DNA of 64,000 nucleotides from assembly GCA_947259785.1 (NCBI GenBank), contig CAMYNQ010000001.1, forward strand, positions 9,088-73,087, read 5' to 3'. This DNA is from an uncultured Chromatiaceae bacterium. Lineage in GTDB: Bacteria > Pseudomonadota > Gammaproteobacteria > Tenderiales > Tenderiaceae. The first letter of the stretch is position 1. Every line of letters starts with the position of its first letter. A model generated the notes under the pieces. It was not told the DNA's origin. It ran no database searches and saw nothing but the letters and a program-made list of their open reading frames with translations. Shown here in pieces: positions 23,094 through 45,456 of the stretch. The position numbers and the translations under genes are program-made.

Positions 23094-24122
23094 TTAATAG
23101 ATCTTCCATCCCTGGCTTCCATATTTGGTGAAATGGCAACTGGAGACCTGGCCTTTGGTATTTTGCAAGGCACGTATGACGTCCATGCGTTTGGCCGGGT
23201 CTACAAGCAGCATCATGAAGCCACCACCTCCAGCACCTGAAATCTTACCCACTTTCATCCCAGCCTCTTTCGCTAGTGCATAGGTTTCTTCTATTTCTGG
23301 ATTGGAGATACTCTTTGCCATACGTTTTTTGGCCACCCAGCCGGCTTCCATAGAGCGCACCAGACCATCAAAGTCCCCTTTTAACAGGCACTCCTTGATT
23401 TGTATTGCCTCCTGTTTCAGGGCATGCATAGCCTCGATGGCATCCGAGTCGTTCTGTTTGACGTTGTTGGCTTGTTCGTCGATGATCTCTGCCGATTGAC
23501 GTGAAACACCGCCAAAATAGAGCAACAGGGAAGATTCAAGTTCAGAGATGATCCAGTTCTTGATCCGAAGGGGATTGACCACTACCCGCTCGTCCTTATG
23601 GAATTCCATAAAGTTAAAGCCACCAAAGGTGGCTGCATACTGATCCTGACGCCCACCCGAGAGACCAACATCGATACGTTCAATTTCATAGGCAAGCCGG
23701 GCGATATCATACTCGCCAAGGGGCAAATTCAACCATTCGACAAAGGCCTTGATCATGGAAACCACCAGGGTCGAGGAGGAACCCAGGCCGGAACCGGGAG
23801 GGGCATCAGAATGAGTCGTCAAAGTCAGCGACAACGGCTCGCCATTGTTGAACTGTTTCACGATGCGATTATAGACGCCCTTGTGCAGATCCAGGGTTCC
23901 GTCCAACGCCAAGCTGGAAGCTACATCAGCTTGCCACGTCTCCTGCCGGTCAGAGGCCACAAATCTAACCATTGCATCTACTGCAGGCTCGATGGTGGTA
24001 TAGGCGTATTTGTCGATGGTGGCATTCAAGACAACTCCGCCGTACATATCACAGTAGGGCGAAACATCTGTACCACCGCCAGCCAACCCAAGCCTAAGCG
24101 GCGCCCTGGCTCTTATTATCAT
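23094..24122 (-). CDS. hddA: GHMP-family D-glycero-alpha-D-manno-heptose 7-phosphate kinase
   Basis: [22 protein letters not shown] motif [10 protein letters not shown] and [11 protein letters not shown]. Start at MIIRARAP (24122, GGAG 9 nt upstream) overlaps the 3' end of the upstream gene. Confidence 0.8.
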
Positions 24123-26330: not shown

Positions 26331-27233
26331 TCATAAGTCGCGCCCCAGCAACATATCTTTGAACAGCCCCAGGCAAAGACGGCCCTGAGAGAGCGGGGCG
26401 AAAAAGAAAGCCCGCCGCAAATCACGCAAGGCAGCACCACGCCGGCCGATGCGGTATTGCCATTTGGCATAATCGGCAAACACAGCGGCCATGCCTTTGC
26501 GCCAATGACCTTCCTGTAGTTGAATAGGGAGCAGGGAGCGGTTTTTTTCCATCACCTGAATCGCAGCATCCCGCATCACCGCCAGGTTGCGACTCATGCT
26601 ATCCGGGCGTTTAAGAATAACCGCTAAAGGTTCATTGACACAGGCATATCCGGCAACAGCGGCCAACCGCATCCACATGTCAATATCCTCCAGACTTTTC
26701 AAGCCCTCATCAAACAGACCGGCCTTTTCGAACAACTCTCGTCGCGCCATTACGCCAGAACCACTACCCGCTACCGCGGCATTCTCGTGAAACAATGCCT
26801 CCAGAAAGGAACCCTGCCACTGCGGGCACGGCCACAGATTAAGAAAATTACCGTCGGGATCTTCCACATTGGTAGCGACAGAACAAAAGCCGATCTCTGG
26901 ATGATCCTGCATAAGCCTGACTTGAGCCTCAAGCTTACCAGGCAGCCACCAATCATCGGCATCCAGGAAAGCAACGTAATCACCGCGCGCCGTCTGAATA
27001 CCGGTGTTACGGGCATTCGAAAGCCCGCCATTGGCCTGCTTCACCACACACAACTTCTCGCCATAAGGGGCTAAAACCTGCTGAGTATCATCGCTACTGC
27101 CATCATCGACAACGATGATCTCCATCGAGCGATACCCCTGTTCCAGCACGCTATCGATGGCACGACAGATACACCAAGCGGCGTTGTAGGCTGGGATAAT
27201 GACTGAGACTAATGGGTCAGACAGCTGTGTCAT
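26331..27233 (-). CDS. GT2-family glycosyltransferase
   Basis: VSVIIPAYNAAWCICRAIDSVLEQ, IIVVDDGSSDDT and AFLDADDWW. Confidence 0.85.
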   Translation of the reverse strand: MTQLSDPLVSVIIPAYNAAWCICRAIDSVLEQGYRSMEIIVVDDGSSDDTQQVLAPYGEKLCVVKQANGGLSNARNTGIQTARGDYVAFLDADDWWLPGKLEAQVRLMQDHPEIGFCSVATNVEDPDGNFLNLWPCPQWQGSFLEALFHENAAVAGSGSGVMARRELFEKAGLFDEGLKSLEDIDMWMRLAAVAGYACVNEPLAVILKRPDSMSRNLAVMRDAAIQVMEKNRSLLPIQLQEGHWRKGMAAVFADYAKWQYRIGRRGAALRDLRRAFFFAPLSQGRLCLGLFKDMLLGRDL

Positions 27234-28164
27234 AACCTAGCTCCTTCATCACAGGGTGAATCATCTCGAGTATGCGTTCGATCGCCTCAGGATTATGTTT
27301 CTTCCATTTTTGCCTGGTCGGCGCCCCCTTAACGATACTGGTTGGACGTTTGTTCAACCCAGCACAACGTCTCTCAAGCTCACTGCTAAATGGAATACCC
27401 AGCCGTTCAAACACCCTTCTATACATTTCAACCGGTTGCTCAAAGATGTCTTCATAACGCAGTTGGATCCATTGCTGCTGGGGAATGGTACGTTTAGCCT
27501 CAAGCGCCATCCTGTTGGCGGTAAGCCACTGATAGGCACAAACCTCTTCTAAAGAGGCATGATTGTAGTCGCGCCAACCCGGCGGCAGGAAAAAAGACCA
27601 TTCTAAAAATTCACCATTATTGATCGCTACAGGCTCGGGAGACTCGCCCAAAAATTGAGAGAGCCGAAAATGGCCATCATGACGCCAGCCATCCATCATC
27701 GAACTAATGTTGTCGCGCCCATCACGGTGAATAAAGATAAAGGTGGCATCCGGGAAGAGCTTATAGAGATAGGGCAGACGCATGACATTGATACAGGTCT
27801 TGTCCAGCACCTGGCCCCACCCCAAACGCTGATAGAAATAACGCAGCACGGAATCACGATGCTCCGGCCAGGCATGCTCAACACCTGCCGCCTCCGAGTC
27901 CCAGCCATTTTTATGCGGGCCCCACAGACTATTCCAGAAGCTCGGGATCTCATAACCGAAGGAAAGCAATTGCGGTGCGGCGGCAATGGTTTCATAGGTA
28001 ACAGTAGTACCGGAACGGGAGCAGCCTATGACAAATACCGGATCAGGCATTTTGGGTCGGCTAATATCCCAAGCGACTCCACGCAGTCCATATTTAAGCT
28101 CACGCAGATTCTTTGTCCGGATTTCCGGGTCCAGTAATTTGTGAAGGTTCTGGAGCTTCGACAT
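27217..28164 (-). CDS. Sulfotransferase (3 of 7)
   Basis: VFVIGCSRSGTTVTYE (5'-PSB) and FIFIHRDGRDNISS (3'-PB). Start at MSKLQN (28164) lies 2 nt after the upstream stop; the longer track ORF is discarded. Confidence 0.75.
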   Translation of the reverse strand: MSKLQNLHKLLDPEIRTKNLRELKYGLRGVAWDISRPKMPDPVFVIGCSRSGTTVTYETIAAAPQLLSFGYEIPSFWNSLWGPHKNGWDSEAAGVEHAWPEHRDSVLRYFYQRLGWGQVLDKTCINVMRLPYLYKLFPDATFIFIHRDGRDNISSMMDGWRHDGHFRLSQFLGESPEPVAINNGEFLEWSFFLPPGWRDYNHASLEEVCAYQWLTANRMALEAKRTIPQQQWIQLRYEDIFEQPVEMYRRVFERLGIPFSSELERRCAGLNKRPTSIVKGAPTRQKWKKHNPEAIERILEMIHPVMKELGYDTAV

Positions 28165-28166
28165 GA

Positions 28167-29138
28167 TCAGTCCTCCCCCACGCTGGTGGAATTGGCCCGA
28201 AGCCTTTCCTTGTGCCGATGCTGATAACCGCGAAGCTCCCCCAGTGCCGCTGCCGAACGCACCAGATAAAAACGGCGCTTTTTCCAACTTAGCGCGGTCA
28301 ACACAGAGAACAGATAACCGGCGAGTTTGCGATACATGAACGCCGGCACACCATTGTAACCCTTGTCATCGGCCAGGCGCACCATGGAATCGGAGCGCGC
28401 ATAGGCCTTCTTAATCAAATACGGCAAGGTAAGGCGCTCACCATCCACATAGTGATACTGCACCACACCGGGCACATACTGCAGTCGCGCACCAAGATGC
28501 AAGGCTCTTCTCACCCACTCCAGGTCCTCTGCCCCGCCAAGATCATGTCCCGTCGGCCCAAACGCAGTAGAAAACTCCCCCACCTTTCCGAGCCACTCTT
28601 TCCTCAGGAACAGGTTGCCGCCGCCGGGAATGGCCGTATCCAAACCTAATCCCATCGGCTCATCGCCCTGATCGAAGCGTGGCACTGGCAAGGGATAGAT
28701 ACGATAAGGCCCCGTGTCATGCACCCAGTCGGGTTCTGAACCATCCCAATCAGGCAAAATGCGGCCACAAAAAAGATCGGCGTCTGAATACTGCTCCGCT
28801 GCATCGCAAATGTTAGTCAAGTAATCCACATCCACCCGGTGATCATCATCGACAAAGGCCACCAGTTCGGATTGAATCCTCGGCATCGCGGTATTTAAGG
28901 CATTCGATTTACCAGGCGTGGATTCTTCGATCCAGTTCAGGGAAAAACCACCGAGTGACTCTTTTTGAAATCTGGCGAGATACTCAAGGGTGTTGTCGCT
29001 ACATGCGTTGGCAACTACAAAAATATCTACTTTCCAATTTTCCGGAGAACGAGCCTTATTCAAGTGCTCAAGCGTGCGCAACAAAAGTTCGGCACGATTG
29101 TGAGTGCAAATCAGGATGGTAAGACCATTCATGATCAT
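28167..29138 (-). CDS. GT2-family glycosyltransferase (tandem paralogue A)
   Basis: LTILICTHNRAELLLRTLEHL, VVANACSDNT and AFVDDDH. The start (ATG 29138 or 29132, or TTG 29165) is uncertain. Confidence 0.8.
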   Translation of the reverse strand: MIMNGLTILICTHNRAELLLRTLEHLNKARSPENWKVDIFVVANACSDNTLEYLARFQKESLGGFSLNWIEESTPGKSNALNTAMPRIQSELVAFVDDDHRVDVDYLTNICDAAEQYSDADLFCGRILPDWDGSEPDWVHDTGPYRIYPLPVPRFDQGDEPMGLGLDTAIPGGGNLFLRKEWLGKVGEFSTAFGPTGHDLGGAEDLEWVRRALHLGARLQYVPGVVQYHYVDGERLTLPYLIKKAYARSDSMVRLADDKGYNGVPAFMYRKLAGYLFSVLTALSWKKRRFYLVRSAAALGELRGYQHRHKERLRANSTSVGED

Positions 29139-31988: not shown

Positions 31989-33104
31989 CTACGACCGCCC
32001 TAATAGGCCTGACAAAAACCACTTCCATCCCACCACACTATCCGCAGCGGCCGTACCACGCATCAGTATCGAGGTTTTACGCAATTTTGAGGCCTTTTTC
32101 GCCATATTACCCTCAGTGAGCATCAGCAAAGTAACCTGATCATTCTCACTGGACTCTATTCTTTGAATAAAAGCACCAGGCTTTAAGTATGTTTCGTAAT
32201 ACTTGATGGCATGTGATCTCATCTCAGCGATCTGTTCCTGATCCATCGCCAGTGCCAGTTTAATCTTCTGTTCCAAATCACGCTCATCATCAAATACGAT
32301 GCAGTTTTCCATATCGCTAAGCGCAGGATCAAACCACTCTGGATAATTGGTGATAGGAATCGCACCAACCGCCATCGCCTCAACCGCATTGTGGCACATG
32401 GGCATCACGTACCCGGGTGGACTCAAAAAAAAGTCTGCCATAGCCAGGTTACTTAGCCAGTAGCGATCGTCCACCCAAATCTTACCGGTATCTACAATCA
32501 CGCACTTGTTGGCATAGGTATTCGACAGCTCACTGAGAACCGGCAAATCCTCCACAAAGAGCGAAACATTGCTCATGCGGTCTCGAATGGCCTCCATAAT
32601 CTTGAGGCGCGGCAGTTTGGCTTTGGGGTACTTGACACGATTCCGGACATAGCCCTCGGTATCTCCGGAAAAAAAGACCCGAATACTCTTCTTCGTCGCC
32701 CTGTATTCTTCAAGCCCTAGCTCGTAGTTACGTGTCGCATGAACGGGATGGACGGTAAAGGGCATAATGATCGGCTGTTCGAACCAATAGGGAGAAAAAA
32801 CATCAAATCCAATCCGGACTTTTTTACGCCAGGCATGATTCCCGATCGTCTCATCCTCTTTATCAAAAAGATAAATCCAGCCGGTCAAATCATCGGGAAT
32901 CGCATCAACTACTGAGACATTCTCAAGCGAGAATGCCATCTGGGCATATTTTTCCAACTCCTGATCACGGAAATTGTTAAATAGTTTTATCTGATATCCC
33001 GCCAATGAAAATGCATTAAGCAACGAAAACAACAGCCGCCCCTGTTCGAGGAGGATCTCGTTCTCCAAGAACTTTGCAAACACGATCTGTTTATTACGCA
33101 TCAT
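31989..33104 (-). CDS. Hypothetical protein with an exostosin-like (GT47-like) C-terminal glycosyltransferase motif
   Basis: ADFFLSPPGYVMPMCHNAVEAMAVGAIPI resembles the exostosin motif FCL.P.G....R..EA...GCIPV. A decayed paralogue lies at 40081-40403. Confidence 0.4.
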   Translation of the reverse strand: MMRNKQIVFAKFLENEILLEQGRLLFSLLNAFSLAGYQIKLFNNFRDQELEKYAQMAFSLENVSVVDAIPDDLTGWIYLFDKEDETIGNHAWRKKVRIGFDVFSPYWFEQPIIMPFTVHPVHATRNYELGLEEYRATKKSIRVFFSGDTEGYVRNRVKYPKAKLPRLKIMEAIRDRMSNVSLFVEDLPVLSELSNTYANKCVIVDTGKIWVDDRYWLSNLAMADFFLSPPGYVMPMCHNAVEAMAVGAIPITNYPEWFDPALSDMENCIVFDDERDLEQKIKLALAMDQEQIAEMRSHAIKYYETYLKPGAFIQRIESSENDQVTLLMLTEGNMAKKASKLRKTSILMRGTAAADSVVGWKWFLSGLLGRS

Positions 33105-33198: not shown

Positions 33199-34275
33199 CT
33201 ACTCCCTCAAAAACTCCTGACGGGCCACCTCAAGATAACCATGCCCGAAACGCAAGTCCGGCTCCATGTGATTGCCTTCAGCCCACTCGTTCCAGGCCTT
33301 GATAAAGAGGATTTTATTTTCATCGGGATGGCCTTCCACCTTTGACAGGGCCTCCTTCAGGTGACGCCGAAACAGCTCCGGGGTCGATCCATGGAACACA
33401 AGTCCATTCATGTTGGCTCTCGGAGTATTATCCCAATTTGGCAACACACAGGGATAATCCATAAAATCAGGCCTGTTTTTTCGCAAAAGGAAGGCGAGCA
33501 TTTCTTCATAGGTGTAGATCGACAGCTGATGCTTACCCTGCCCCACCATAACCTTGAGCTTGGCATCAAGAAAACGGCTGGGCACCCGCCCATTACGCGG
33601 CGGCAACTTTTGCATCATGCAGGCATCAAACCCCCGCTGGCGAGGATCCCACTCCGGCTCAAAATGTGAGATACCCACCAAATGCAGCCCTTTCAGCCCT
33701 GCCTGCTGCGCCCGTTCACGCCAGTAATCAGTCACACGCTGGACATCCGGAATATCATCTGGTTTGTACACTAGAAACAGCGGCTTACCATCTACAGTGA
33801 TATAGCGGAAATCACTAAATGCTTTCAAAAGAAAATCAAAATGAGCCGCATGGTCCTCCATCCCAGGATAGACCTGCTCGACCAGGATGCGGTCGGGAGT
33901 CCCCTGCCAGATACTATTCCAGCTATGGTTGGCCCAGCACAAACAGAAAGGAAAATCAGGCTCACCCAGCGCCAAGATGTCATTTACCGGGCGTTCCAAC
34001 ATCCTTCGCCCACCAAACCAATAGTGGTAATAGCAAAACCCCTCAATACCATACTGTTGCGCCAGCTCAGCCTGGGCTGCACGGGCCTCCGGCAGACGCA
34101 GGTCATAAAAACCAAGATCAGCAGGAACGTGCGGCTGATAATGACCGCGATATAAAGGCTTAGCCTTAGCGGTGTTGGTCCATTCAGTAAACCCCTTACC
34201 CCACCATTCATCGTTTTCAGGAATAGGATGGAACTGCGGCAAATGAAAGGCAATAGCACGTGCTTTCTTGTCCAT
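33199..34275 (-). CDS. WbsX-like (GH99-like fold) polysaccharide biosynthesis protein
   Basis: AIAFHLPQFHPIPENDEWWGKGFTEWTNTAKAKPLY...GIEGFCYYHYWFGG is the characteristic N-terminus of the Glyco_tran_WbsX family. Confidence 0.8.
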   Translation of the reverse strand: MDKKARAIAFHLPQFHPIPENDEWWGKGFTEWTNTAKAKPLYRGHYQPHVPADLGFYDLRLPEARAAQAELAQQYGIEGFCYYHYWFGGRRMLERPVNDILALGEPDFPFCLCWANHSWNSIWQGTPDRILVEQVYPGMEDHAAHFDFLLKAFSDFRYITVDGKPLFLVYKPDDIPDVQRVTDYWRERAQQAGLKGLHLVGISHFEPEWDPRQRGFDACMMQKLPPRNGRVPSRFLDAKLKVMVGQGKHQLSIYTYEEMLAFLLRKNRPDFMDYPCVLPNWDNTPRANMNGLVFHGSTPELFRRHLKEALSKVEGHPDENKILFIKAWNEWAEGNHMEPDLRFGHGYLEVARQEFLRE

Positions 34276-34691
34276 AATTTTTAATCTTTGGCATAGCTCG
34301 GGATACTTGGGACACTCACAATCACGTCAAGCACCTACTAGTACGCTATGACCCACATGACCTCTAAATTGAATTCAAAATCTGACGCATTGTAGCGTAA
34401 ATCATAGGGCATTTGTGCGATCACTATTACCTCGCCCACGCATCGCCACACACCTGAACGACCTTAAAAACGGAGGAAATTGACACTTAACCACGGCAAA
34501 ATGTGTAATATATGGGCGATCTAAACATAAGCCTTAGTCCAGACTGCGATACTTACCAATATTGATTATTGGCGACTCAAGCACTTTTTCGAGATATTTG
34601 CCTTTAATGAACAAACAATTGTGTCATCCTTTTCCGAAAAAGAACGCATCTATTCGAGACAGGCACGAAGAGATTCCGGGGTAAATAGAGA

Positions 34692-36071
34692 GTGAACACA
34701 ACTACACAAGCAAAAGTATTTTGCATTGGCCTATCCAAAACAGCCACCACTAGCCTGGCCGCCGCCCTAACCCAACTCGGATACAAGGTCAGAGATAACA
34801 TTGGTGTCACACGGTACACCGCCGGGGATATCAGCTGCATAGATGAGCATGAATTAAAGAGTCACGACGCCTTCACCGACACGCCAATCCCTTCCTTTTA
34901 CAAACAACTCGATGCCAAATACCCGGGCTCCAAGTTCATCCTGACCAGCCGTGAACTAAAAGCCTGGCTCTTATCGTGCAAAAAGCAGTTCACCCAAAAA
35001 CATGCTGATGCACGCAGTGACGCAGTCAATCAGTTGTTTCTGGACCTTTATGACAGCACCTGTTTTGATGAGGAAAAATTCACCCATGGCTACAATCGCT
35101 TTGTCGCCGATGCGAAAGACTATTTCAAAGACCGCCCATCAGATTTTTTGGTGATCGACCTATGCGAAGGTGAGGGCTGGGACAAACTCTGCCAATTCCT
35201 GGGCAAACACATCCCTGATATCCCGGTTCCAGTGACAAATGTCACCAAGATCCAGTGGCTAAAAGTTGAAGATATTGTCGCTATCGCCCGCGAGGCGGGG
35301 AAAAAACTTCCCCAACCCCCTCAGATCTCCAACACGACACCAAGCACCCCCGCTGTGGGAATACTCGGCCGGATCAGCAACAAGATACAAGCGGCAAAAT
35401 CTCAGCGCCAGCGTAAAAATATACAAAAGTCTAAAAATGCGGCCCATAAAATCATCGTAGATGGACTCACAAGACTAAATCCGACGATACCAATCCTGTC
35501 TGTAGAAGGCCAAAATGAACCCTACTCGGAACGGAAGGGCTGGAGCCATCTCTGGCTAATTGATATCCACAGCGGGGCAGAAGCCTACCTTAATCATGGC
35601 ACCCCATTAACCGTCAGCATTGCATTGATCGAAAATGGCTCACCCAGGACAGGGGTCGTATATATCCCTAAAAAGGACACTGTCTACTACACAAAAAACA
35701 CCGCCGTCAGCTTCAAACAGGTAGGACACAGCGAGCCCATAGAGTTACATGCCGATAACGATCAAGATCAAGATCAGAGATTACCCGTCATCTCGTCTGC
35801 TGGAAACATCCCATCTGATGTGCTTGCGTGCCACAACAATACTGATAACACCACCACTCAAAGACAGCAAGCCACTGCATTGGCGCTATGTGCGGTTGCC
35901 GAAGGTGCTGCAAAGGCCTACATTGGCACTGAGTCGGCGAAAGAGTGGGAGGTTGCAGCAGCCCACGCCATTATCAATGGCGCAGGAAAAAAGCTCATAA
36001 ATCACCTAACAGGTGAAACGCCTCGATACAATGGAGAACACTTGGCAGTGGAGCCAATTTTGGCAAAGTAA
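34692..36071 (+). CDS. Fusion protein: N-terminal sulfotransferase (4 of 7; Sulfotransfer_4-like) plus a C-terminal degenerate CysQ/inositol-monophosphatase-like domain
   Basis: N-terminus: VFCIGLSKTATTSLAAALTQLGY. C-terminal half is colinear with CysQ: AAHKIIVDGLTRLNPTIPILSVEG, WLIDIHSGAEAYL (in place of W.VDP.DGT), LTVSIALIENGSPRTGVVYIP and KEWEVAAAHAIINGAG (in place of WDTAAG). GTG start per the ORF track. Confidence 0.7.
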   Translation: MNTTTQAKVFCIGLSKTATTSLAAALTQLGYKVRDNIGVTRYTAGDISCIDEHELKSHDAFTDTPIPSFYKQLDAKYPGSKFILTSRELKAWLLSCKKQFTQKHADARSDAVNQLFLDLYDSTCFDEEKFTHGYNRFVADAKDYFKDRPSDFLVIDLCEGEGWDKLCQFLGKHIPDIPVPVTNVTKIQWLKVEDIVAIAREAGKKLPQPPQISNTTPSTPAVGILGRISNKIQAAKSQRQRKNIQKSKNAAHKIIVDGLTRLNPTIPILSVEGQNEPYSERKGWSHLWLIDIHSGAEAYLNHGTPLTVSIALIENGSPRTGVVYIPKKDTVYYTKNTAVSFKQVGHSEPIELHADNDQDQDQRLPVISSAGNIPSDVLACHNNTDNTTTQRQQATALALCAVAEGAAKAYIGTESAKEWEVAAAHAIINGAGKKLINHLTGETPRYNGEHLAVEPILAK

Positions 36072-36090
36072 TGGACTTCAATATAATTTT

Positions 36091-37002
36091 ATGACCACGC
36101 ACGGATCAGGATGGAAATCTTTGTGGCACCGAGCCACAAATGTTTACAAGCAGAGCTCGCCGAACATGCCTACACGTGCTTTGCTCGACAACCCAAAAGA
36201 ATATGTCAAAATTTATGGCGAGCGAAATACCGGCACGAATTTTGTCCAACAAATGATCCGCCAGAATTTCCGATGCCAGCCAATACCTGGGACCTTGGCG
36301 GATGCCTGCCCTGGTTATCGAGAATCCATCGAAGAAGAACTCAAACCCAGGGTTTCAGATGAAGCAAAAAAAATAATGATCCGCCAGACAAAGATGGATG
36401 CCTATTTTCGGGGCAACCTATGGAACACCCTCGGGTGGAAACATGCTGTACCACCAATCGAGGTAATCTTAGCCCGCCCGGATCGAGACAACATCCAATT
36501 TGTTACTGTCACCAAAAACCCATATGCCTGGGCACTATCGTTATTTCGTCGCCCATATGAAAACATCAGTATCAAGGGCCCTGACAAGTTCTCCGACTTT
36601 ATTTCCGAGCCATGGGTGACGGTTGAGCGCGACAACGCCCCCGCCATTCTGGCAAGCCCGATTGAACTATGGAATATTAAAGAGAGTGGTTACGAGCGTT
36701 TAGCAAAAGAGGTTGACGTACTGCGCTGCCGTTATGAAGACGTCCTTATCGACCCCTCTCACTTCCTGACGTCACTATCAAACCATCTGGAGAAGACAAA
36801 TGATGAGTTTGAGATAGTAACCGACGCCGCCAAGGAAAGGGATAAAGGCAAAAAGGACTTAAACTACTATCAAGACTACTATCTAAATCAGCGATGGCGA
36901 GACAACCTTAACGCCGGCGATATCCGCTTGATAAATCGTTTCTTGGACCGCTCTGTAGTAGAAGAAGCTGGGTATGAAATGCTAACACCTATGACTGAGT
37001 AA
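36091..37002 (+). CDS. Putative sulfotransferase (5 of 7), divergent
   Basis: YVKIYGERNTGTNFVQQMI (P-loop-like 5'-PSB) and VTVTKNPYAWALSLF (RNPxxxxxS-like 3'-PB). ATG 36091 was chosen because it lies just after the upstream stop; the track ORF begins at 36013. Confidence 0.4.
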   Translation: MTTHGSGWKSLWHRATNVYKQSSPNMPTRALLDNPKEYVKIYGERNTGTNFVQQMIRQNFRCQPIPGTLADACPGYRESIEEELKPRVSDEAKKIMIRQTKMDAYFRGNLWNTLGWKHAVPPIEVILARPDRDNIQFVTVTKNPYAWALSLFRRPYENISIKGPDKFSDFISEPWVTVERDNAPAILASPIELWNIKESGYERLAKEVDVLRCRYEDVLIDPSHFLTSLSNHLEKTNDEFEIVTDAAKERDKGKKDLNYYQDYYLNQRWRDNLNAGDIRLINRFLDRSVVEEAGYEMLTPMTE

Positions 37003-37285
37003 CCCCTGCATCCTATATGCGCTCAGTGGCAATGACCTTTCCCCCCAGCCCAGCGAGCAACGAGAAATCTCAGCTATATCGTGATTCCAGCCAGGAAAAA
37101 GTTCGTCCTGGAGGACTGCTTATTTCTGTATTGCATAACTAATAACTTCGCTTCATTTTCAGTAAAAACAGATCAAGCATGGAATACCCCTTGCTTCAAA
37201 CACAATATTCGCATCGGACATAGCCGCCTCCAAATTCCAACTTAAACCAAACAAGGTGATATTTTAGGCATTCCAGTAAGCGGCT

Positions 37286-37969
37286 TTACACTTGATCAAA
37301 CTTGTATCCAAATAGTCGGATATCGTTTTTGTGTCGTTCTGCAACGATAGCTTTGCTCTCATCATCATAGTATTCTGAATAGTGATAGCCCTGCTTAAAT
37401 CCAGACTTCAAATGCGGCAATGAAACCTCCGCAACACCAATCCACCTGCAAACTTCCTTGATGTCATCTTCAAGATTTTCGTAACGGATAACAAATTCAA
37501 CACAAAGCTCATCGTCAAAAAGGTAAAAGCTATCATTAGTCTTCCACTCACCCTTTACAAACTTTGAAAACAACTTTCTCGTTTCCCGTAATTCGTTGAA
37601 TGGCACCCCTAGCCTGTGATGGAGCCGTCTGCGCGGCTTGAACTCAGGGTCATTCCTGCTTTTCCAATTAAACAATGAAACTACGCGATCCCACGGATTC
37701 CGGGTGATACTGAACTTGAAATAGTTATCCCAGATTTCCTGCCCAACTCTACTTCTTATCGTGTTCGCCTCATCATGCTGATGATAATCACCGGCATTCA
37801 TGGACTGGTGAATCCACTCACCCTTTTCATTTCTGTTAAAAACATAATCACCAAGCGGCGTAACAACATCATCACCACTACAATGATTTGAAAGAGCCGA
37901 CTCTAGACTCGTCCCTGCGGTTTTGAACGACTTTATAAAGATAAACTTATGACTGTGCGAAATAATCAT
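37286..37969 (-). CDS. Sulfotransferase family 2 protein (6 of 7)
   Basis: HKFIFIKSFKTAGTSLESAL and FSITRNPWDRVVSLF are the canonical Sulfotransfer_2 motifs. Confidence 0.8.
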   Translation of the reverse strand: MIISHSHKFIFIKSFKTAGTSLESALSNHCSGDDVVTPLGDYVFNRNEKGEWIHQSMNAGDYHQHDEANTIRSRVGQEIWDNYFKFSITRNPWDRVVSLFNWKSRNDPEFKPRRRLHHRLGVPFNELRETRKLFSKFVKGEWKTNDSFYLFDDELCVEFVIRYENLEDDIKEVCRWIGVAEVSLPHLKSGFKQGYHYSEYYDDESKAIVAERHKNDIRLFGYKFDQV

Positions 37970-38021: not shown

Positions 38022-40040
38022 CTATGTTTTGCTGTCACGCTCAATCAATAGTAACTCATCCCCCTTCATGTCGGTCAGCTCCTGAGAGAAGCCATCAGGC
38101 CAGCGTATGGTTATCGAATCCGCCTTCGAATGCGAACCAAGTCCGAAGTACAAGCGATAATGCCCTTGCGAAAAGAACGCTCCTTCGTTGCTGCCGACCT
38201 CTTGTGTCTGCTCACCATCAGGTGTAACAACGGTTACCTGTGCACCGATTGCCTGGCGATTCCCCGGCAACCCAACGAGCTTCATCTGAAGCCAATGATT
38301 TGTAGCACCAACATTACGGTACGCTAGAATTGTCCACTTAGAGACATCTTCAGGGGCTTTAAAGATTTTTTCCCACCAGCTCCAAAAAGAAGGGTTTTCA
38401 TTTAGTGCAAACACAACATCCCGCGCCCCATTATTGTCTAGGTCGGCCCAATTGGATATGGCCGCTTGGTACTTCCTAGACGGAAATGTCAACAAATTCG
38501 TGGCATTGAACTTGTGGTCTTTACTCTGACGAAATAAACCCTCCGGTACGACGTGCATATCAATCAAGCCGTCGTTGTTGTAATCTACCCAATTGGCCCC
38601 CACGCTCTTTGCTGGCAAACCAACTGTCTCTGGATCAACAGGCGAAAATTTCCCCTTAGTATTGATAAGAAGCGTATTCCCTTTCTTCGATGCAGAAAAG
38701 GCATCCAGATCCCCGTCCCCATCATAGTCGGCGACAGTTAATTTTCCATCATATGACCAATAATAACCTGCAACATACTTCAAACCAGGCTTATCTGCTC
38801 TCGCAAACTTCCCCCGTCCTATGAACTCAGGCGAGAAATACCCTGCTTGGTTGCGGTACAAAAAGTAGCCTTTGTCCTCCGACGTCAAGAGGTCCGTATC
38901 CATATCATTGTCTGCATCGATCCATACGAAGTCAATCAGCTGATGGTCGGGGATATCAAGACCAGCCTCAGCAGCGGCCATCACAAACTGTCCACCAACA
39001 TTTTGCCGGTAAAGTTGTTTTGGGAACTCCCCCTCGACCTTCCCTCTGTCTTGGCAATTAATGTATAGATCTAACAAACCGTCATTATTGAAATCCACCC
39101 ATTTAACATTTCGACCGGAACAGTTTTCCTTAACAACCCCCTTTTCAGAGGCAACATCCCGATACCGGCCGTTGTCCTGACTCACGAGAAATTGGTCTTT
39201 AATCCTGTTTCGAACATGCTCTGGATTCTGCTTAAGCCAACCACCGAGCCCCCCCCGGGTTGCAAAAATATCTAGCCTGCCATCTTCATTGTAATCCGCC
39301 CATGCGAGACCATGGCGATCCTGATGAGCCAAGGAGAAGCTGGTCGAGCTCGGCGACACTATTTGGTTGCCGACAAATATGCTGGATGGCTGAATCGCAC
39401 CCTTAAGATTGAAATCTATTGGAACACCCCAATTATTGAGCTTCAACACCAGCACCCCGTCGCTAGCTGCCGAAAAACTTACGACTGTTCCCGACTTAGT
39501 AGAAGACTTCTGCCACTCAACCTGGAAGCCATTGTTTTTTTCCATCTCTACCGCAGCCTGGCTCTGGAAAGTTCCTTGCCACTGCCCAATTTCACCCATA
39601 TTGTGAGCGCGGATTATCACATTGTGGCCTGTCTCATCATCACCACCGCTGCCCAGCCAGTAGATATATAGCCCGGCTTTATCTATATTGGGTGCAATGT
39701 AGGAGAGTTCCAAGCCAGGAAATTCCTTACTCTGGTTAAGCCCCCAGTCGTCAAGGACATCACGGTACCCACCTCGACCGTCGGCAATCAGCAGTGTTTG
39801 CCTAAAATTATGGTTGGAGGTGTATATATCCAACAGGTTATCCCCATTGGCATCCACGACCCCCATATCGAACAGGCGAAAGGTCTCCTGCAGGGGGATT
39901 GGCTGCTCAACAAACACGTCACCAGTGGCAGCGGAAATCTCATCCTGAAAAGGAACATTTTTAACCACGAAAAACGAACCTAAAAATATCAACAGACTCA
40001 CGATAATTAAGACAAAAACATTACGCTTTTTCCGCATCAT
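38022..40040 (-). CDS. CRTAC1-family protein: N-terminal membrane anchor, seven FG-GAP/VCBS repeats and a C-terminal ASPIC/UnbV domain
   Basis: Ca-binding-type loops VDANGDNLLDIY, ADYNEDGRLDIF, VDFNNDGLLDLY, IDADNDMDTDLL, ADYDGDGDLDAF, VDYNNDGLIDMH and ADLDNNGARDVVF. ASPIC/UnbV tail NHWLQMKLVGLPGNRQAIGAQVTVV...FFSQGHYRLYFGLGSHSKADSITIRWPDG. Confidence 0.8.
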   Translation of the reverse strand: MMRKKRNVFVLIIVSLLIFLGSFFVVKNVPFQDEISAATGDVFVEQPIPLQETFRLFDMGVVDANGDNLLDIYTSNHNFRQTLLIADGRGGYRDVLDDWGLNQSKEFPGLELSYIAPNIDKAGLYIYWLGSGGDDETGHNVIIRAHNMGEIGQWQGTFQSQAAVEMEKNNGFQVEWQKSSTKSGTVVSFSAASDGVLVLKLNNWGVPIDFNLKGAIQPSSIFVGNQIVSPSSTSFSLAHQDRHGLAWADYNEDGRLDIFATRGGLGGWLKQNPEHVRNRIKDQFLVSQDNGRYRDVASEKGVVKENCSGRNVKWVDFNNDGLLDLYINCQDRGKVEGEFPKQLYRQNVGGQFVMAAAEAGLDIPDHQLIDFVWIDADNDMDTDLLTSEDKGYFLYRNQAGYFSPEFIGRGKFARADKPGLKYVAGYYWSYDGKLTVADYDGDGDLDAFSASKKGNTLLINTKGKFSPVDPETVGLPAKSVGANWVDYNNDGLIDMHVVPEGLFRQSKDHKFNATNLLTFPSRKYQAAISNWADLDNNGARDVVFALNENPSFWSWWEKIFKAPEDVSKWTILAYRNVGATNHWLQMKLVGLPGNRQAIGAQVTVVTPDGEQTQEVGSNEGAFFSQGHYRLYFGLGSHSKADSITIRWPDGFSQELTDMKGDELLLIERDSKT

Positions 40041-42088: not shown

Positions 42089-43402
42089 TCAAGATCTTAT
42101 GGTAACGTTCCCATACTTCATCGCCCTGTCCTTGTTACCTCCAACCTGATCACTTTTATCCTCTTCATCTTTTTCCGAGCCTGCCAGATATTTCAGCGTC
42201 AGCACTTGCAATATGACTACAATGGCAACAAAGTGGTAGATCAGGTCAAAATAGGCCTGACTGATGAATGCGCCCCCTACCATATAGGCAACCATACTCA
42301 CCTGCAGCATCGCCGCCAGATCTCCAGCCCAGCGCAAACCTTCGTGCTTTTTGCTCTTTCGCCTCACCCATGAGGCGGTTCGCCAGGTAAAAAAGAGCAA
42401 TAACAAGAACAAAAACAGCCCCACATAGCCGTGCTCACCAAGGATCTGGAAATAAATACTGTGGGCAGCACGCCGGCCTGCAGTAACCTCAAACCCTCCC
42501 CCGACGATGGGGCTGGCATTTGCTACTTTGATTGCATACTTCCAGGCATCAATGCGCCCCATGGCGGAGCCATCTTCCTCATAGGTTTCTATCGTATGCA
42601 TACGCGCCTTCCATTCTTCCGGCACGAAGTTGTAGGCTGCATATCCCACCACAGCCATCATTACTATCAATAGAAGTTTACCGCGGCTCTTGAACAACAA
42701 GATTAGCGACACAGCGGCCAGGCCCAGAGCGGCACCACGAGAAGAGGTGCCCACCACGGCAAATACTGTCAAGCCAATGGCCGCAGTCATGCCATGTTTG
42801 ACCCACCAAACAGGAGTACTAAGCTGCAGGTAACGCATTAACGGAATCATCATATTCAACGCCGTCCCAATCTCGCCACGGGTTCCAATAAAGGAGCCTC
42901 CCGGCCCTAAAACCCTATGCGCCCCACCTGTCTGGATCGTAAATATCCCACCTTTGACACCGTAAAAACCGAGCGATAAGACAATAACCCAAATCAGTAT
43001 CTGCAACCGTTTCTTATCGGTAATAAACATCATGGTAATGAAAACAAACAACATTACCTTCCATACCTTATCCCACTTGAACCACGCCCAATACTGCAGG
43101 TCGGCAAACAGGGTCGTGATAAACATCCAGACAACAAACGTCAGCAGCAGCACCGATTCCCGGGTCCATGGGATCTTCCTTGACTCCTTGGTAAACAGCA
43201 TGGCAATAAGCGTGGCGCCTGCCGCCATCTCGGCAAACGGCAGGGCACTCCAGGCGAGGCGATGTGGGTTCATGTAACCTATCCAGGACCAGACGTAGAC
43301 GCCGATATGGGGCTGCCTCAAGATAAAGGGCAGGCTGGCAATAACAATTGCTAATAGAAGGAGGGCTCTCACGTCTTGCCTAGCGAGGGTTTTATGCCTC
43401 AC
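42089..43402 (-). CDS. O-antigen ligase/Wzy-like membrane protein, exosortase-A-associated 'O-glycosylation ligase' type
   Basis: Polytopic. SLPFILRQPHIGVYVWSWIGYMNPHRLAWS matches the N-terminal signature I recall for the XrtA-associated ligase family. A large periplasmic loop carries HSIYFQILGEHGYVG. Confidence 0.75.
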   Translation of the reverse strand: MRHKTLARQDVRALLLLAIVIASLPFILRQPHIGVYVWSWIGYMNPHRLAWSALPFAEMAAGATLIAMLFTKESRKIPWTRESVLLLTFVVWMFITTLFADLQYWAWFKWDKVWKVMLFVFITMMFITDKKRLQILIWVIVLSLGFYGVKGGIFTIQTGGAHRVLGPGGSFIGTRGEIGTALNMMIPLMRYLQLSTPVWWVKHGMTAAIGLTVFAVVGTSSRGAALGLAAVSLILLFKSRGKLLLIVMMAVVGYAAYNFVPEEWKARMHTIETYEEDGSAMGRIDAWKYAIKVANASPIVGGGFEVTAGRRAAHSIYFQILGEHGYVGLFLFLLLLFFTWRTASWVRRKSKKHEGLRWAGDLAAMLQVSMVAYMVGGAFISQAYFDLIYHFVAIVVILQVLTLKYLAGSEKDEEDKSDQVGGNKDRAMKYGNVTIRS

Positions 43403-44225
43403 TACCTCCCTGCGGTTTTATAGAAAACCAGCGCACCCTGAGAGGCAGGCTCAACCCCATGAGCATGCCATTCTTCACCTGCTCGGCAAGCCGTTGTTCA
43501 TGCCGCAAACCACGGTCTTTCACCTGGTAAAGTCGCCCCTTTTCAATCTGATCCTGGCCAAACTGTTCGCCACGCTCCAAACGATCCAGCAATTCGGCAT
43601 ATACCTCGGCACTGTCACGCACTGCCCGCCAAAAAAGAGTCAGCTCATCATCATCCTCTTTCACTTCAGGAGAGACATGGGCGATCAGATGGCCGGTATC
43701 GATTCCGGTATCGATAAAATGCAGTGTGCAGCCAACCTGTTCTGGCTCACCATTATGCAACGCCCAGAAGGTGCAGTCCGCGCCGCGGTAATGGGGCGAG
43801 AGACCACCATGAAGATTGACGATGCCCAGGCGGCCCTTTTCCAGCAACGCCCCTTTGATCAGTGAAGTACCGAATACGGCTATCACATCGGGCTTGAGCT
43901 TGTCCGCCAGCGCCACTACATCAGGATGGTTGATATGGGGCACGGCAACGGCCAGGTCTTGCCTGTCCAGCTTCGGCTCTTGGTCGCCGAAGAAAAACTG
44001 GGCTTCGCCCCCCCCGGTGTAGCGCTTTCTATCACGCAGCCAACGCCAGACCTTGCGCCATAACTTCACTGGACTGGACAGCAGTTTAAGCACCTTACCT
44101 GCATTCAGGTCGCTGCCCACCTCCTGCACGATCGCCACCGGTTTAGCGGCCTTGCAAAGCCGGTTGGCTACGTAGAGATGACGCGGCGAACGACCACAGA
44201 GAATCATTACCGTCAGCTCAGACAT
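43392..44225 (-). CDS. Formyltransferase-family protein (Fmt/ArnA-N/sugar N-formyltransferase-like)
   Basis: IVNLHGGLSPHYRGADCTFWAL (Asn/His catalytic motif) and HFIDTGIDTGHLI (Asp motif). The ATG at 44225 overlaps the upstream stop (ATGTCTGA). Confidence 0.7.
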   Translation of the reverse strand: MSELTVMILCGRSPRHLYVANRLCKAAKPVAIVQEVGSDLNAGKVLKLLSSPVKLWRKVWRWLRDRKRYTGGGEAQFFFGDQEPKLDRQDLAVAVPHINHPDVVALADKLKPDVIAVFGTSLIKGALLEKGRLGIVNLHGGLSPHYRGADCTFWALHNGEPEQVGCTLHFIDTGIDTGHLIAHVSPEVKEDDDELTLFWRAVRDSAEVYAELLDRLERGEQFGQDQIEKGRLYQVKDRGLRHEQRLAEQVKNGMLMGLSLPLRVRWFSIKPQGGSEA

Positions 44226-45429
44226 TGACCACCTTTTCAATTGACGTAGGAGGGACGGCAATATCATGCATATCCATCATCAAGGCATCGGCATAAAACT
44301 TCGCCGCCCAGTTGGGATATTCAAAACGGGAGTAGTCACCCCAGATGGGGGCCGAACCGGCAATTCCGCCTTTTACGACTTCATCGCCCGCATCGATATG
44401 ATGATTCTTTTTAAGATAGGAGAGGGCCTTGCGGGCCGACTCTCTCAGCTCTGGCACATCAGCAGCCTGGGCCAAACGAGTCCAGTTCAGGCTCATCTGC
44501 GCCACACCGGTAAGGCAACAGTAAGATGCCATCGGCTGCCAGCCATCAGCATAGGCCCCCGCCAGCCAGCCATCCTGGCGCTGTACCTGCGCCATAGCCC
44601 TGGCCGCCTTGAGGGCAGATTGAAGATAGCGCTCTTCGCCCAGCAACACCCCGCTCTCCAGGAAACCACGAATGGCATAGGCGATGGTGTGAGTGAACGG
44701 GGAACGGTCAGGGGTAAAGGCATTGGTAGCATACCAGCCGGAATCTGTCTGTTGCGACAACGCCCACTCAAGATTGTCGATCGCTCCCTGCTTTAGGCGT
44801 TGCTCCCCCGTCACCAGGCCGGTTTTCAACAACGCCCAGGTGCCGCGCGTATTATAGACATGGGGAACGTCGTTGTGCTCATAGCGGCGCCAGCAGCCAT
44901 CCTTATCCTGATGTCTGACCAGCCACTCGCCGGCCTTTACCGACGCTTCCAGACACTCTTGGCGACCCAGTTGCAGATAACCAGCCAGCATGCCATGCAT
45001 GATCTGGCCGGTATTGAAAATCACTGGCCGACTACCGGCTTCGCCAAAATGGCCGGGGAAGGCACCATCGTCCTGCTGAATGGACAACTCCCAATCGATC
45101 ATGCGCTGGGCGCGTTGCACCAGCTCCGGCTGCTCCAGAATCTCCGCGGCTGCGAGGAAAGTCTCGATGATATAGCCGGTGGTCTCGGGATAGCTCGGCA
45201 ACCAGCCATCCTCGAAGCTCCAGCCTGCCGAAACGCCACCTGCATCCTGTTGGCCGTCCCGCACATCCTGCGCCAGGCACAACCAGTCAATAGTGGCCTG
45301 CAAATGGGTTTTATGGCCATGCTCAGACTGTGTCGATGTCCCGCCTATATCACCTACAATGAGACGTAAATGACGCGGCCGCCAGGGTTTGTAGCGAAAG
45401 GGCAAGGCCAAAAGATTCATCGGGTTCAT
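44218..45429 (-). CDS. Hypothetical (alpha/alpha)6-toroid protein with prenyltransferase/squalene-cyclase-like repeats
   Basis: Recurrent QW-like motifs: IQQDDGAFPGHF, RHQDKDGCWRRY, QQTDSGWYATNAF and VQRQDGWLAGAY. No signal peptide seen. Confidence 0.45.
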   Translation of the reverse strand: MNPMNLLALPFRYKPWRPRHLRLIVGDIGGTSTQSEHGHKTHLQATIDWLCLAQDVRDGQQDAGGVSAGWSFEDGWLPSYPETTGYIIETFLAAAEILEQPELVQRAQRMIDWELSIQQDDGAFPGHFGEAGSRPVIFNTGQIMHGMLAGYLQLGRQECLEASVKAGEWLVRHQDKDGCWRRYEHNDVPHVYNTRGTWALLKTGLVTGEQRLKQGAIDNLEWALSQQTDSGWYATNAFTPDRSPFTHTIAYAIRGFLESGVLLGEERYLQSALKAARAMAQVQRQDGWLAGAYADGWQPMASYCCLTGVAQMSLNWTRLAQAADVPELRESARKALSYLKKNHHIDAGDEVVKGGIAGSAPIWGDYSRFEYPNWAAKFYADALMMDMHDIAVPPTSIEKVVNV

Positions 45430-45456
45430 TACAAGCTTTTCCTTAATTCCACATTG

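Follow-up and report, generated by a model that had tools for sequence, protein, structure and literature searches.

The gene at positions 34692-36071 of the window, by which we mean the whole 64,000-nucleotide stretch of DNA that was analyzed, raises the question of why a sulfotransferase should be joined to a relative of the PAP phosphatase CysQ, and whether this relative still functions as a phosphatase. The gene is one uninterrupted reading frame of 459 codons, and an earlier note, made from the letters and their translation, was right in describing it as a genuine sulfotransferase::CysQ-like fusion, since Pfam finds both a Sulfotransfer_4 domain (residues 8-185, E 4.8e-30) and an Inositol_P domain (residues 228-441, E 2.5e-21), and since a database search for the two-domain architecture returned it from 195 independent protein clusters of Gamma- and Betaproteobacteria and Desulfobacterota. 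The fusion is found in the complete genomes of Ca. Tenderia electrophaga (CP013099), Methylotuvimicrobium sp. KM1 and Methylomicrobium wino1 as well as in the cultured strain Desulfacinum infernum DSM 9756, the public MAG record GCA_945787175.1 calls the same fusion gene, and identical copies of the protein are present on two contigs. The AF2 model of the whole protein has a pLDDT of 90 and a pTM of 0.87, from which we read the two-domain arrangement as confidently fixed. The two domains abut without a linker at a junction near residues 187/188, and the low-complexity linker that had been placed between them (residues 206-249) in fact sits inside the CysQ-like domain. Literature searches found no published description of a Sulfotransfer_4::degenerate CysQ fusion, in agreement with the remark of the earlier note that no described example of the architecture was known. 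The features discussed in the following are collected in Table 1.

Table 1. Features of the fusion gene and its neighbors, in window positions.
Feature	Position	Strand	Basis or remark
Whole ORF, 459 aa, GTG start: Sulfotransfer_4 domain and predicted CysQ-derived pseudophosphatase domain	34692..36071	+	ORF listing, Pfam
Sulfotransfer_4 domain, aa 1-187, predicted active	34692..35252	+	PF17784
PAPS 5'-phosphosulfate-binding loop CIGLSKTATTSL; family consensus GIGLSKTGTTSL	34722..34757	+	Column counts, translation
Putative 3'-phosphate-binding segment TSRELKAWLLS	34944..34976	+	T85, R87, W92 and S95 invariant in family
Predicted CysQ-derived pseudophosphatase domain, aa 188-459	35253..36068	+	TIGR01331, PDB 3b8b, Foldseek
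Kept CysQ helix alpha-1, aa 190-205 (LKVEDIVAIAREAGKK)	35259..35306	+	Alignments with E. coli CysQ and P0126
Variable basic insert, aa 206-249 (44 aa), in place of the catalytic hairpin	35307..35438	+	Alignment with P0126
LSVEG; metal-ligand Glu (E. coli E64) replaced by Val271	35496..35510	+	Alignments
WLIDIHSGA, degenerate W-x-V-D-P-L-D-G-T; D291 kept, D86 to S294, T88 to A296	35553..35579	+	
Variable region over the CysQ SRSH and GSSLK positions, aa 346-395	35727..35876	+	SSAG and QATALA instead
EWEVAAAHA, degenerate E-W-D-T-A-A-G; metal-ligand Asp (E. coli D205) replaced by Glu420	35943..35969	+	
GT1-like protein, 371 aa, most consistent neighbor of the fusion	31989..33104	-	tblastn
WbsX-family glycosyltransferase, divergent	33199..34275	-	Adjoins the fusion also in Tenderia and Methylotuvimicrobium
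P-loop 'GERNTGTN' sulfotransferase-like protein, 278 aa, downstream and co-directional	36166..37002	+	Weak Sulfotransfer_1 match
Sulfotransfer_2 gene, conserved neighbor	37286..37969	-	Pfam; 13 of 19 loci of at least 15 kb

The N-terminal domain is predicted to be an active PAPS-dependent sulfotransferase. It scores 105.4 bits against PF17784 (gathering cut-off 22.8) and covers profile positions 1-212 of 215, its sequence matches in the PDB are Schistosoma SULT-OR, SgdX2 and 9kf1, and the mean pairwise identity of the domain within the family is 67%. The sulfotransferase motifs are invariant across the fusion family with a single exception in the window protein: K16, T17, T19 and S21 of the PAPS-binding loop, together with R87 and S95, are invariant or nearly so in 120 homologues, and all six are present in the window protein as well, where the loop reads GLSKTATTS against G-x-S-K-T-G-T-T-S, but the G18A substitution is found in this protein only (1 of 120 family members), and because it is so unusual the activity of this particular sulfotransferase is not certain. 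The segment around the invariant R87 and S95 we take to be the 3'-phosphate-binding motif, by analogy with other sulfotransferases.

The genomic context suggests that the acceptor is a sugar of a polysaccharide repeat unit. The locus is of the XrtA/PEP-CTERM exopolysaccharide type, with at least six sulfotransferase genes and one sulfatase gene in the window, and genes of the XrtA system (XrtA, XrtA amidotransferase, stp1 and stp3) lie at positions 56384-63436, all of them above the NCBIfam cut-offs (TIGR03109, 364 bits against 208; TIGR03108, 1102 against 817; TIGR03087, 557 against 317; TIGR04063, 646 against 442). A polysaccharide-assembly context is likewise conserved around the fusion at related loci, where tblastn places the GT1-like gene within 10 kb of the fusion at 29 of 38 loci and at 16 of the 19 loci that span at least 15 kb. 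Neither PAPS synthesis genes nor a canonical cysQ were found within the window, and a promoter and terminator scan of positions 34200-37350 gave counts at or below shuffle expectation.

The descent of the C-terminal domain is apparent from both sequence and fold. Pfam Inositol_P, the AF2 model and Foldseek all place it in the IMPase/FIG superfamily with its alpha-beta-alpha-beta-alpha fold, and CysQ is the closest sequence family: the highest scoring NCBIfam model is TIGR01331, the CysQ structure 3b8b is matched in sequence with E 2.3e-21, and the same entry is the best Foldseek match (E 1.8e-17, TM 0.74 normalized to the target) with the whole CysQ fold aligned. The curated equivalog thresholds are nonetheless not reached, since TIGR01331 gives 120.9 bits where 228.8 are required, or about half, and NF008182 gives 101.9 bits against 379. 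The alignments with E. coli CysQ quoted in the earlier note are correct (a 23-residue stretch with AAHKIIVDGLTRLNPTIPILSVE, and FTVNIALIDHGKPILGVVYAP with LTVSIALIENGSPRTGVVYIP), but its statement that the first ~45 residues of CysQ are missing is wrong, and the label "truncated" has to be abandoned because helix alpha-1 is kept and the replacement is confined to the hairpin that follows. Here VEDIVAIAREAG aligns with LDQVCQLARNAG of E. coli CysQ and with IEDLVAIAKKAG of P0126, a fusion with an intact CysQ domain, DSSP assigns a helix to residues 192-203 of the AF2 model, and A199, A202 and G203 are at least 90% conserved in the family. What has been replaced is the hairpin with the DxSPxTxAD motif (E. 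coli residues 21-42, including K31), in the place of which the window protein has an insert that aligns with ILEIYDKEISVEYKDDNSPLTEADKISH of P0126 and a 19-residue gap. Within the family this insert varies from 26 to 58 residues at a pairwise identity of 19%, and the helix extension and insert carry a net charge of +8 in the window protein against a family mean of +3.4. A membrane-binding amphipathic helix in the insert was also considered and is not supported, as the hydrophobic moment is not above that of shuffled controls (z = 0.7) and as a Gly-Gly or Gly-Asp break interrupts the insert helix in most family members.

The catalytic residues were judged against 70 diverse canonical CysQs aligned with hmmalign (E. 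coli numbering), in which E64, E65, D83, P84, D86, G87, T88, S180, K183 and D205 are 100% conserved. At the five catalytic columns E64, D83, D86, T88 and D205 the window protein has V271, D291, S294, A296 and E420, a V-D-S-A-E signature that leaves it one of four side-chain metal ligands, D291. The motif changes reported in the earlier note (SEE to SVE, W.VDPLDGT to WLIDIHSGA, WDTAAG to WEVAAA) are thus real, as seen in alignments with both E. coli CysQ and the family, and scoring of the metal-ligand columns against CysQ finds the full catalytic set in none of 193 degenerate fusions, of which 0% keep E64, 10% T88 and 2% D205. The E64 column is instead occupied by P, R, G, S or A, with Arg in about a third of the members (signatures such as RDDEQ and RDDEH), and the D205 column by Q (52), E (46), H (9), K (7) and D (2). 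E65 is kept in 31% of the fusions and no other acidic column is conserved as a substitute. The ordinary CysQ fusion, the chance resemblance and the joining of two genes by sequencing error for which the earlier note had allowed are accordingly all contradicted, the ligands not being intact, the similarity to the IMPase fold being significant and the fusion recurring in the 195 clusters.

Residues beyond the catalytic set have been lost as well. S180, K183, Y195 and R197, picked by comparative invariance and presumed to be nucleotide determinants, are 97-100% invariant in the 70 CysQs, and two of them, K183 and R197, differ in aligned SuhB/IMPase sequences. The corresponding residues of the window protein are T395, A398, Y410 and G412, which do not reproduce the CysQ-invariant set, and the fusions retain S180 in 24%, K183 in 0-2%, Y195 in 19% and R197 in 0-1%. 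The SRSH and GSSLK stretches are lost in a region of 16.5% pairwise identity and pLDDT 60-80. Among CysQ columns with a conservation of at least 90%, the fusions keep 24, mostly hydrophobic, Gly and Pro positions of the core, and lose 19, including K31, D33, S35, P36, T38, D41, E64, E65, T88, S155, S180, K183, Y195, R197 and D205, and only one column is newly constrained. The Inositol_P score is 76.8 bits for the window protein against 172-195 in seven fusions with the three canonical CysQ motifs. D291 (D83) is kept in 87% of the family, and D-P-L-D-G in about 85%, although the subclade of the window protein lacks D86, P84 and L85; much of the family, but not the window protein, combines D-P-L-D-G with a Glu or Gln at the WD position, and in such members one metal could still be bound. 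The degeneration runs through the family as a whole and is not peculiar to the window gene.

With the loss of the hairpin, of the water-activating Thr and three of the four side-chain ligands, and of S180, K183 and R197, hydrolysis of PAP by the window domain is very unlikely and canonical binding of PAP is doubtful. Given its homology with CysQ, the loss of essential residues and a core conserved over the loops in three phyla, the domain is almost certainly an inactive pseudophosphatase, and the identity of 43-49% in its core against 16-19% in its own variable loops indicates that it is retained under purifying selection.

The history of the domain can be approached through the 2 of 195 fusion clusters, P0126 and P0106, in which it is intact, the remaining 193 being degenerate. 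P0126 is collinear with the window protein over its full length at 41% identity and keeps all canonical CysQ residues. The degenerate C-domains are monophyletic in 200 of 200 bootstraps, a support that long-branch effects could inflate in a distance (NJ) tree such as this, and their sister group consists of the intact fusions and standalone CysQs. Intact CysQ has furthermore been fused independently to Sulfotransfer_3 and to APS kinase. There is no sign of dead CysQ genes that stand on their own among the degenerate matches of 228-285 residues whose N-termini were read, because these short matches are most likely fragments of fusion genes: P0125, P0136, P0147, P0252, P0130, P0124 and P0144 begin either in the end of the sulfotransferase ('PFPKANVTQI.W') or within the C-domain. 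A split stage with an ST_4 gene next to cysQ was likewise not found around the nearest standalone CysQs, P0304, which is set among housekeeping genes, and P0296, which follows an APS kinase gene.

Taken together, the protein is probably an active polysaccharide sulfotransferase to which a pseudophosphatase derived from CysQ is attached as a retained, non-catalytic module. The Sulfotransfer_4 enzyme, cytoplasmic and PAPS-dependent, would sulfate a sugar of the XrtA/PEP-CTERM locus exopolysaccharide while permanently joined to a domain of CysQ descent that is now a pseudoenzyme. In the history that we infer, a sulfotransferase was fused to an active CysQ, which would have cleared the inhibitory product PAP on the spot, a state that appears to persist in P0126 and P0106; the phosphatase was then inactivated once, in one lineage, and this lineage would have spread and diversified in Gamma- and Betaproteobacteria and Desulfobacterota. 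In it the dead domain would have become a rigidly packed module under purifying selection, most likely serving as structural support or as a recognition surface for the sulfotransferase, its acceptor or a partner.

A more elaborate and more tentative proposal is that the domain, far from being a passive relic, has been repurposed as a ligand- or partner-binding pseudoenzyme that controls the polysaccharide sulfotransferase, either as a sensor of PAP or PAPS or as a holder of a phosphorylated or lipid-linked acceptor. Inactivation would on this proposal have been selected, because an active CysQ beside a PAPS-using site would destroy the donor too, and if it holds true, pseudoenzyme-assisted sulfotransferases would form a new class that is widespread in XrtA/PEP-CTERM exopolysaccharide systems. 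Its nucleotide-binding form, in which the dead domain still binds PAP or PAPS and acts as product sink, donor-delivery module or allosteric sensor, seems rather unlikely when taken by itself. The ancestor was a PAP-specific enzyme and the partner is a PAP-producing one, and a residual nucleotide or phosphate site is conceivable because several polar residues shared with CysQ, namely R281 (R73), E418 (E203), W419, Y446 (Y230) and N447 (N231), are 95-100% conserved and D291 is widely kept, as is D-P-L-D-G, while the Arg that replaces the Glu ligand in some members might touch phosphate directly. However, the presumed nucleotide determinants are mostly gone, K31, D33 and SPxTxAD have gone with the deleted hairpin, the SRSH/GSSLK regions are the least conserved of the domain, hardly any column has become newly constrained, and the window subclade has degenerated further still in D-P-L-D-G. 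The "PAP/PAPS-binding module" put forward in the earlier note is hence weakened.

That the dead pocket is re-used for the sulfate acceptor or a partner, such as the diphosphate of an undecaprenyl-PP-linked repeat unit or the neighboring sulfotransferase-like protein, we regard as improbable. The notion stems from the basic charge of the insert that replaces the hairpin, from the fact that the fusion gene always lies amid polysaccharide-assembly genes, and from P0082 of Desulfobacula (708 residues), the N-terminal 260 residues of which are 58% identical to the product of the downstream gene and are followed by ST_4 and a dead CysQ. The insert is however poorly conserved and not significantly amphipathic, the single gained column speaks against a newly evolved specific site, and of 38 loci only 5 have the downstream gene. 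Still less credible is a phosphatase with altered metal chemistry, whether the local PAP scavenger suggested in the earlier note or an enzyme acting on another phosphoester. The fold is intact and confidently modeled, acidic residues are available in D291, E272, E418 and E420, and such a fusion would be sound in its logic, since sulfotransferases joined to a CysQ predicted to be active do exist (P0126, P0164), but not one of the 193 degenerate domains has a full ligand set or retains Glu at E64, the WD Asp and the Thr that holds the nucleophilic water in position are rarely kept, the catalytic hairpin is absent, no alternative acidic column is conserved, and the TIGR01331 score is half of its cut-off. 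Finally, that the fusion is an artefact of assembly or sequencing, or its C-terminal half a decaying and functionless relic, is suggested by the origin of the sequence in a metagenome-assembled genome and by frameshifted or shortened copies at some related loci (L041, L039), but the artefact is for practical purposes refuted by the 195 collinear homologues with copies in complete genomes and one cultured strain, and the reading as a whole has next to nothing left to recommend it in view of the identical protein on two contigs, an alignment with P0126 that is unbroken across the domain junction, and a C-domain core 2.5 times more conserved than its own loops.

The preferred reading, a sulfotransferase with a non-catalytic module of CysQ descent, gives a series of three states in one lineage, from standalone CysQ over the presumed active sulfotransferase::CysQ fusion to a fusion that is predicted to be dead and that then spread over three phyla, and hence a usable natural experiment in which a helper enzyme, once tethered, turns into a pseudoenzyme. 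It also bears on annotation, as about 190 clusters are named "3'(2'),5'-bisphosphate nucleotidase", "PAPS 3'-phosphatase" or "inositol monophosphatase family protein" in databases, and since the named phosphatase activity is almost certainly absent from them, any metabolic reconstruction in which they are counted as CysQ would be in error. P0126, P0106 and P0164, rare fusions with an intact CysQ, are on the other hand candidate self-cleaning sulfotransferases, which could serve enzymatic sulfation, where inhibition by PAP is a known practical problem (PMC10638397). The fusion is furthermore the mark of a conserved module of several sulfotransferases in XrtA/PEP-CTERM loci, which points to heavily sulfated exopolysaccharides in sulfur-oxidizers, methanotrophs and sulfate reducers.

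Among known systems, the Sulfotransfer_4 enzymes (the Schistosoma oxamniquine sulfotransferase 5tiz/4mua, SgdX2 8y9p and 9kf1) share the PAPS-binding loop and the invariant Arg and Ser with the N-domain, but they are single-domain enzymes with small-molecule substrates, whereas the window protein belongs to an exopolysaccharide locus and has an additional 272-residue domain predicted to be a pseudoenzyme. For the C-domain, canonical CysQ (TIGR01331, EC 3.1.3.7; E. coli b4214; PDB 3b8b and 5djf) is the closest sequence family and has the same fold; alpha-1, the W-x-x-D core strand, FTVNIAL, CxxAEG, EW-x-AA and the C-terminal YN are common to both, but the window domain is without the hairpin and DxSPxTxAD, without E64, D86, T88, D205, S180, K183 and R197, reaches half the family cut-off score, is fused to a sulfotransferase and is predicted to be inactive. 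The nearest relatives in architecture are the uncharacterized metagenomic proteins P0126 and P0106, which are collinear over their full length at 41% identity, have the same domain order and the same junction and likewise lie in a polysaccharide gene cluster, but keep 21 of 21 CysQ positions with an Inositol_P score of 171.9 bits, have C-domains 62-68% identical to standalone CysQs, and are presumably bifunctional. CysQ is also tethered to enzymes of PAPS/PAP metabolism in P0239 (APS kinase::CysQ) and P0164 (Sulfotransfer_3::CysQ), and to other partners in P0158 (NUDIX::CysQ) and P0150 (RmlD::CysQ), but these four all keep canonical motifs, and a domain that appears dead throughout a family is found in the Sulfotransfer_4 lineage only.

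The fusion gene is a single unbroken reading frame of 459 aa and is also called in the public MAG record GCA_945787175.1. Pfam detects Sulfotransfer_4 (residues 8-185, 105 bits, E 4.8e-30) and Inositol_P (residues 228-441, E 2.5e-21), among the NCBIfam models CysQ TIGR01331 scores best (120.9 bits, cut-off 228.8), and the closest solved structure by sequence is the Bacteroides CysQ 3b8b (E 2.3e-21). The E. coli cysQ gene itself was retrieved as BLASTP partner, and the alignment with its product is identical to the one given in the earlier note. The altered motifs listed there are indeed present, the protein having LSVEG against LSEE(D/G), WLIDIHSGA against W-x-V-D-P-L-D-G-T and EWEVAAAHA against (E/I)WDTAAGHA. 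An AlphaFold2 model made from 71 homologues is confident (pLDDT 90, pTM 0.87), and since its top structural match is again 3b8b (TM 0.74 normalised to the 271-residue target, 299 aligned columns), the entire CysQ fold is predicted to be present. In addition, the helix at residues 192-203 (VEDIVAIAREAG) aligns with CysQ helix alpha-1 (LDQVCQLARNAG in E. coli, IEDLVAIAKKAG in the intact fusion cluster P0126), and the CysQ-like domain therefore begins at about residue 188, where it abuts the end of the sulfotransferase domain. The notion that the CysQ N-terminus is missing does not hold, given the fully modelled fold and this helix, and the supposed low-complexity linker (residues 206-249) is rather an insert within the CysQ-like domain. 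The insert stands in place of the hairpin bearing K31 and the D-x-S-P-x-T-x-A-D motif, varies across the family from 26 to 58 aa with a pairwise identity of 19%, and is basic (net charge +8 in the window protein, family mean +3.4); its amphipathicity was examined and is not significant.

Residue losses were scored with an HMM built from 70 diverse standalone CysQs found by exhaustive phmmer search, to which CysQs and fusions were both aligned, the fusion counts resting on 121 proteins in one alignment and 122 in a second.

Conservation of CysQ columns (E. coli numbering) in standalone CysQs and in the fusions
Column	70 CysQs	Fusions	Window protein
E64	100%	0% (P/R/G/S/A instead)	V271
E65	100%	31%	E272
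D83	100%	87%	D291
D86	100%	65%	S294
T88	100%	10%	A296
S180	100%	24%	T395
K183	100%	0% (n=121) / 2% (n=122)	A398
Y195	97%	19%	Y410
R197	97%	0% (n=121) / 1% (n=122)	G412
D205	100%	2% (Q/E/H/K instead)	E420

At the five catalytic columns (E64, D83, D86, T88 and D205) the window protein reads V-D-S-A-E, and together with its closest relatives (DTFxG) it is degenerate beyond the family consensus (D-P-L-D-G). P36, T38 and D41, found in all 70 canonical CysQs, are missing in the fusions. K183 and R197 are not matched in the aligned SuhB and human IMPase sequences, and are therefore taken as putative nucleotide specificity determinants, as are S180 and Y195, which are just as invariant. Among columns at least 90% conserved in CysQs, the 24 kept comprise R73, D83, E203, Y230 and N231 and, for the most part, core positions that are hydrophobic or hold Gly, Pro or Trp, while the 19 lost include, D83 aside, all catalytic and hairpin residues; just one column, Y333, is newly constrained in the fusions. 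The old metal-site signatures co-vary across the family (columns of residues 271, 296 and 420; kinship may confound the counts), Arg at E64 usually pairing with Asp at D86 and Glu at T88 (RDDEQ 24, RDDEH 18) and Pro accompanying Asn/Asp and Ala/Thr. In such co-varying fusions an Arg salt-bridge network might have replaced the metal ions.

Judged from sequence, the C-domain is very unlikely to hydrolyse PAP, and it is probably also unable to bind PAP in the canonical manner. The main rival, that it retains residual nucleotide binding or sensing, draws on the conservation of R281, E418, Y446 and N447 and on the D-P-L-D-G retained in much of the family, but we consider it improbable. Mean pairwise identity is 67% for the sulfotransferase domain; within the C-domain it is 43-49% in the core segments against 16-19% in the variable loops, and the dead domain is not in decay. 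It is probably kept as a non-catalytic module, rigidly packed, that would support or extend the sulfotransferase. In the latter, GLSKTGTTS, T85, R87, W92 and S95 show no or almost no variation across the family; the PAPS loop of the window protein however reads GLSKTATTS (G18A, codon at 34743-34745), with Gly in 119 of 120 sequences and Ala18 in this one alone.

Intact relatives exist. P0126 and P0106 (85% mutual identity) are likewise Sulfotransfer_4::CysQ fusions, canonical at all 21 checked CysQ positions; P0126 aligns with residues 6-452 of the window protein at 41% identity, unbroken across junction and insert, its C-domain shares 62-68% identity with standalone CysQs, and its gene also sits within a polysaccharide cluster. 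A neighbour-joining tree of the C-domains unites the degenerate fusions in a single clade (200/200 bootstraps), sister to P0126, P0106 and five standalone CysQs. In the simplest history a sulfotransferase would have been joined to a PAP phosphatase that was still active; a single inactivation of the phosphatase would have followed, and the dead fusion would have spread afterwards. Separate CysQ fusions with canonical motifs involve Sulfotransfer_3 (P0164), APS kinase (P0239), NUDIX (P0158) and RmlD (P0150) domains, and an FAD/NAD(P)-binding domain::CysQ protein (P0167) likewise has the three motifs. Candidate standalone degenerate CysQ genes, where N-termini were inspected, resemble pieces of fusion genes.

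A search of 5.8 billion proteins gave at least 120 full-length two-domain homologues (40-55% identity), three pooled searches gave 195 fusion clusters, and a scan of species-representative genomes gave 37 loci. The loci belong to Gammaproteobacteria (Ca. Tenderia, Methylotuvimicrobium, Methylomicrobium, Methylomonas, Methyloprofundus, Chromatiaceae), Betaproteobacteria (Thiobacillus, Burkholderiales, Casimicrobiaceae, Hydrogenophilales) and Desulfobacterota (Desulfobacula, Desulfobulbaceae, Desulfacinum infernum DSM 9756). The 195 clusters across three lineages, several of the genomes being complete, rule out a fusion created during assembly. One MAG has a Sulfotransfer_4 remnant cut to 172 aa, lacking the C-domain and lying beside GT1-like and WbsX genes (locus L039, 1900-2418), as well as a full-length copy (L008); a different MAG has a frameshifted copy (L041, 9998-10913).

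As a whole, the window is an exopolysaccharide locus of the XrtA/PEP-CTERM type; four genes at 56384-63436 score above their curated NCBIfam cut-offs.

Features of the polysaccharide locus in window coordinates
Feature	Position	Remark
Sulfotransfer_3 gene	13098-13991	
Sulfotransfer_3 gene	16711-17520	
Sulfatase	24094-26244	716 aa
Sulfotransfer_3 gene	27217-28287	
Fusion gene	34692-36071	+ strand
Sulfotransfer_1-like gene	36166-37002	weak match; 278 aa by public gene call
Sulfotransfer_2 gene	37286-37969	
FG-GAP repeat/ASPIC-UnbV protein	38022-40040	672 aa; two genes downstream of fusion
Formyltransferase-like, squalene-hopene-cyclase/GH127-like, two PaaK-like AMP-dependent ligases, ATP-grasp ligase	43392-46851 and 52076-54668	
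stp3	56384-57625	above NCBIfam cut-off
XrtA-system amidotransferase	58661-60550	above NCBIfam cut-off
Exosortase A (XrtA)	60624-62222	above NCBIfam cut-off
stp1	62171-63436	above NCBIfam cut-off

The window also has rmlABCD and genes for Wzx, a DUF5935/Wzy-type protein, a polysaccharide deacetylase and many enzymes of the GT2 and GT4 families; cysC, cysDN and a canonical cysQ are absent from it. At least six sulfotransferase-type genes are present, and the five besides the fusion, together with the sulfatase, suggest a heavily sulfated polysaccharide. The formyltransferase-like, cyclase/GH127-like, PaaK-like and ATP-grasp proteins may add acyl or amino-acid decoration, and the first three recur beside the fusion in Methylotuvimicrobium. 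The neighbours that recur at most 10 kb from the fusion, counted over 19 related loci that each span 15 kb or more, are GT1-like proteins (16 loci), GT2s (14-16), polysaccharide deacetylase and Sulfotransfer_2 (13 each), FG-GAP/ASPIC proteins (12), Sulfotransfer_3 (10) and WbsX (8). The gene directly downstream, as a mechanical ORF (36013-37002), overlaps the fusion-gene end by 59 bp, and in the Desulfobacula protein P0082 (708 aa) its homologue (58% identity) is fused N-terminally to Sulfotransfer_4 and the dead CysQ domain.

The N-domain would be a working PAPS-dependent sulfotransferase whose acceptor is one of the sugars of this polysaccharide. By annotation, CysQ-type enzymes also take the 3'-phosphate off PAPS. 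Tethered next to a site that uses PAPS, in a locus of many sulfotransferases, an active copy might therefore, speculatively, be counter-productive and hence have been inactivated. Databases name the fusion proteins as active nucleotidases. Our literature search found no paper that describes CysQ fused to a sulfotransferase or CysQ as a pseudoenzyme; the earlier note, too, knew of no described example of the architecture. The general type, a pseudoenzyme domain tethered to its cognate pathway enzyme, is already known, and the fusion is a variant of it that is new to the literature searched.
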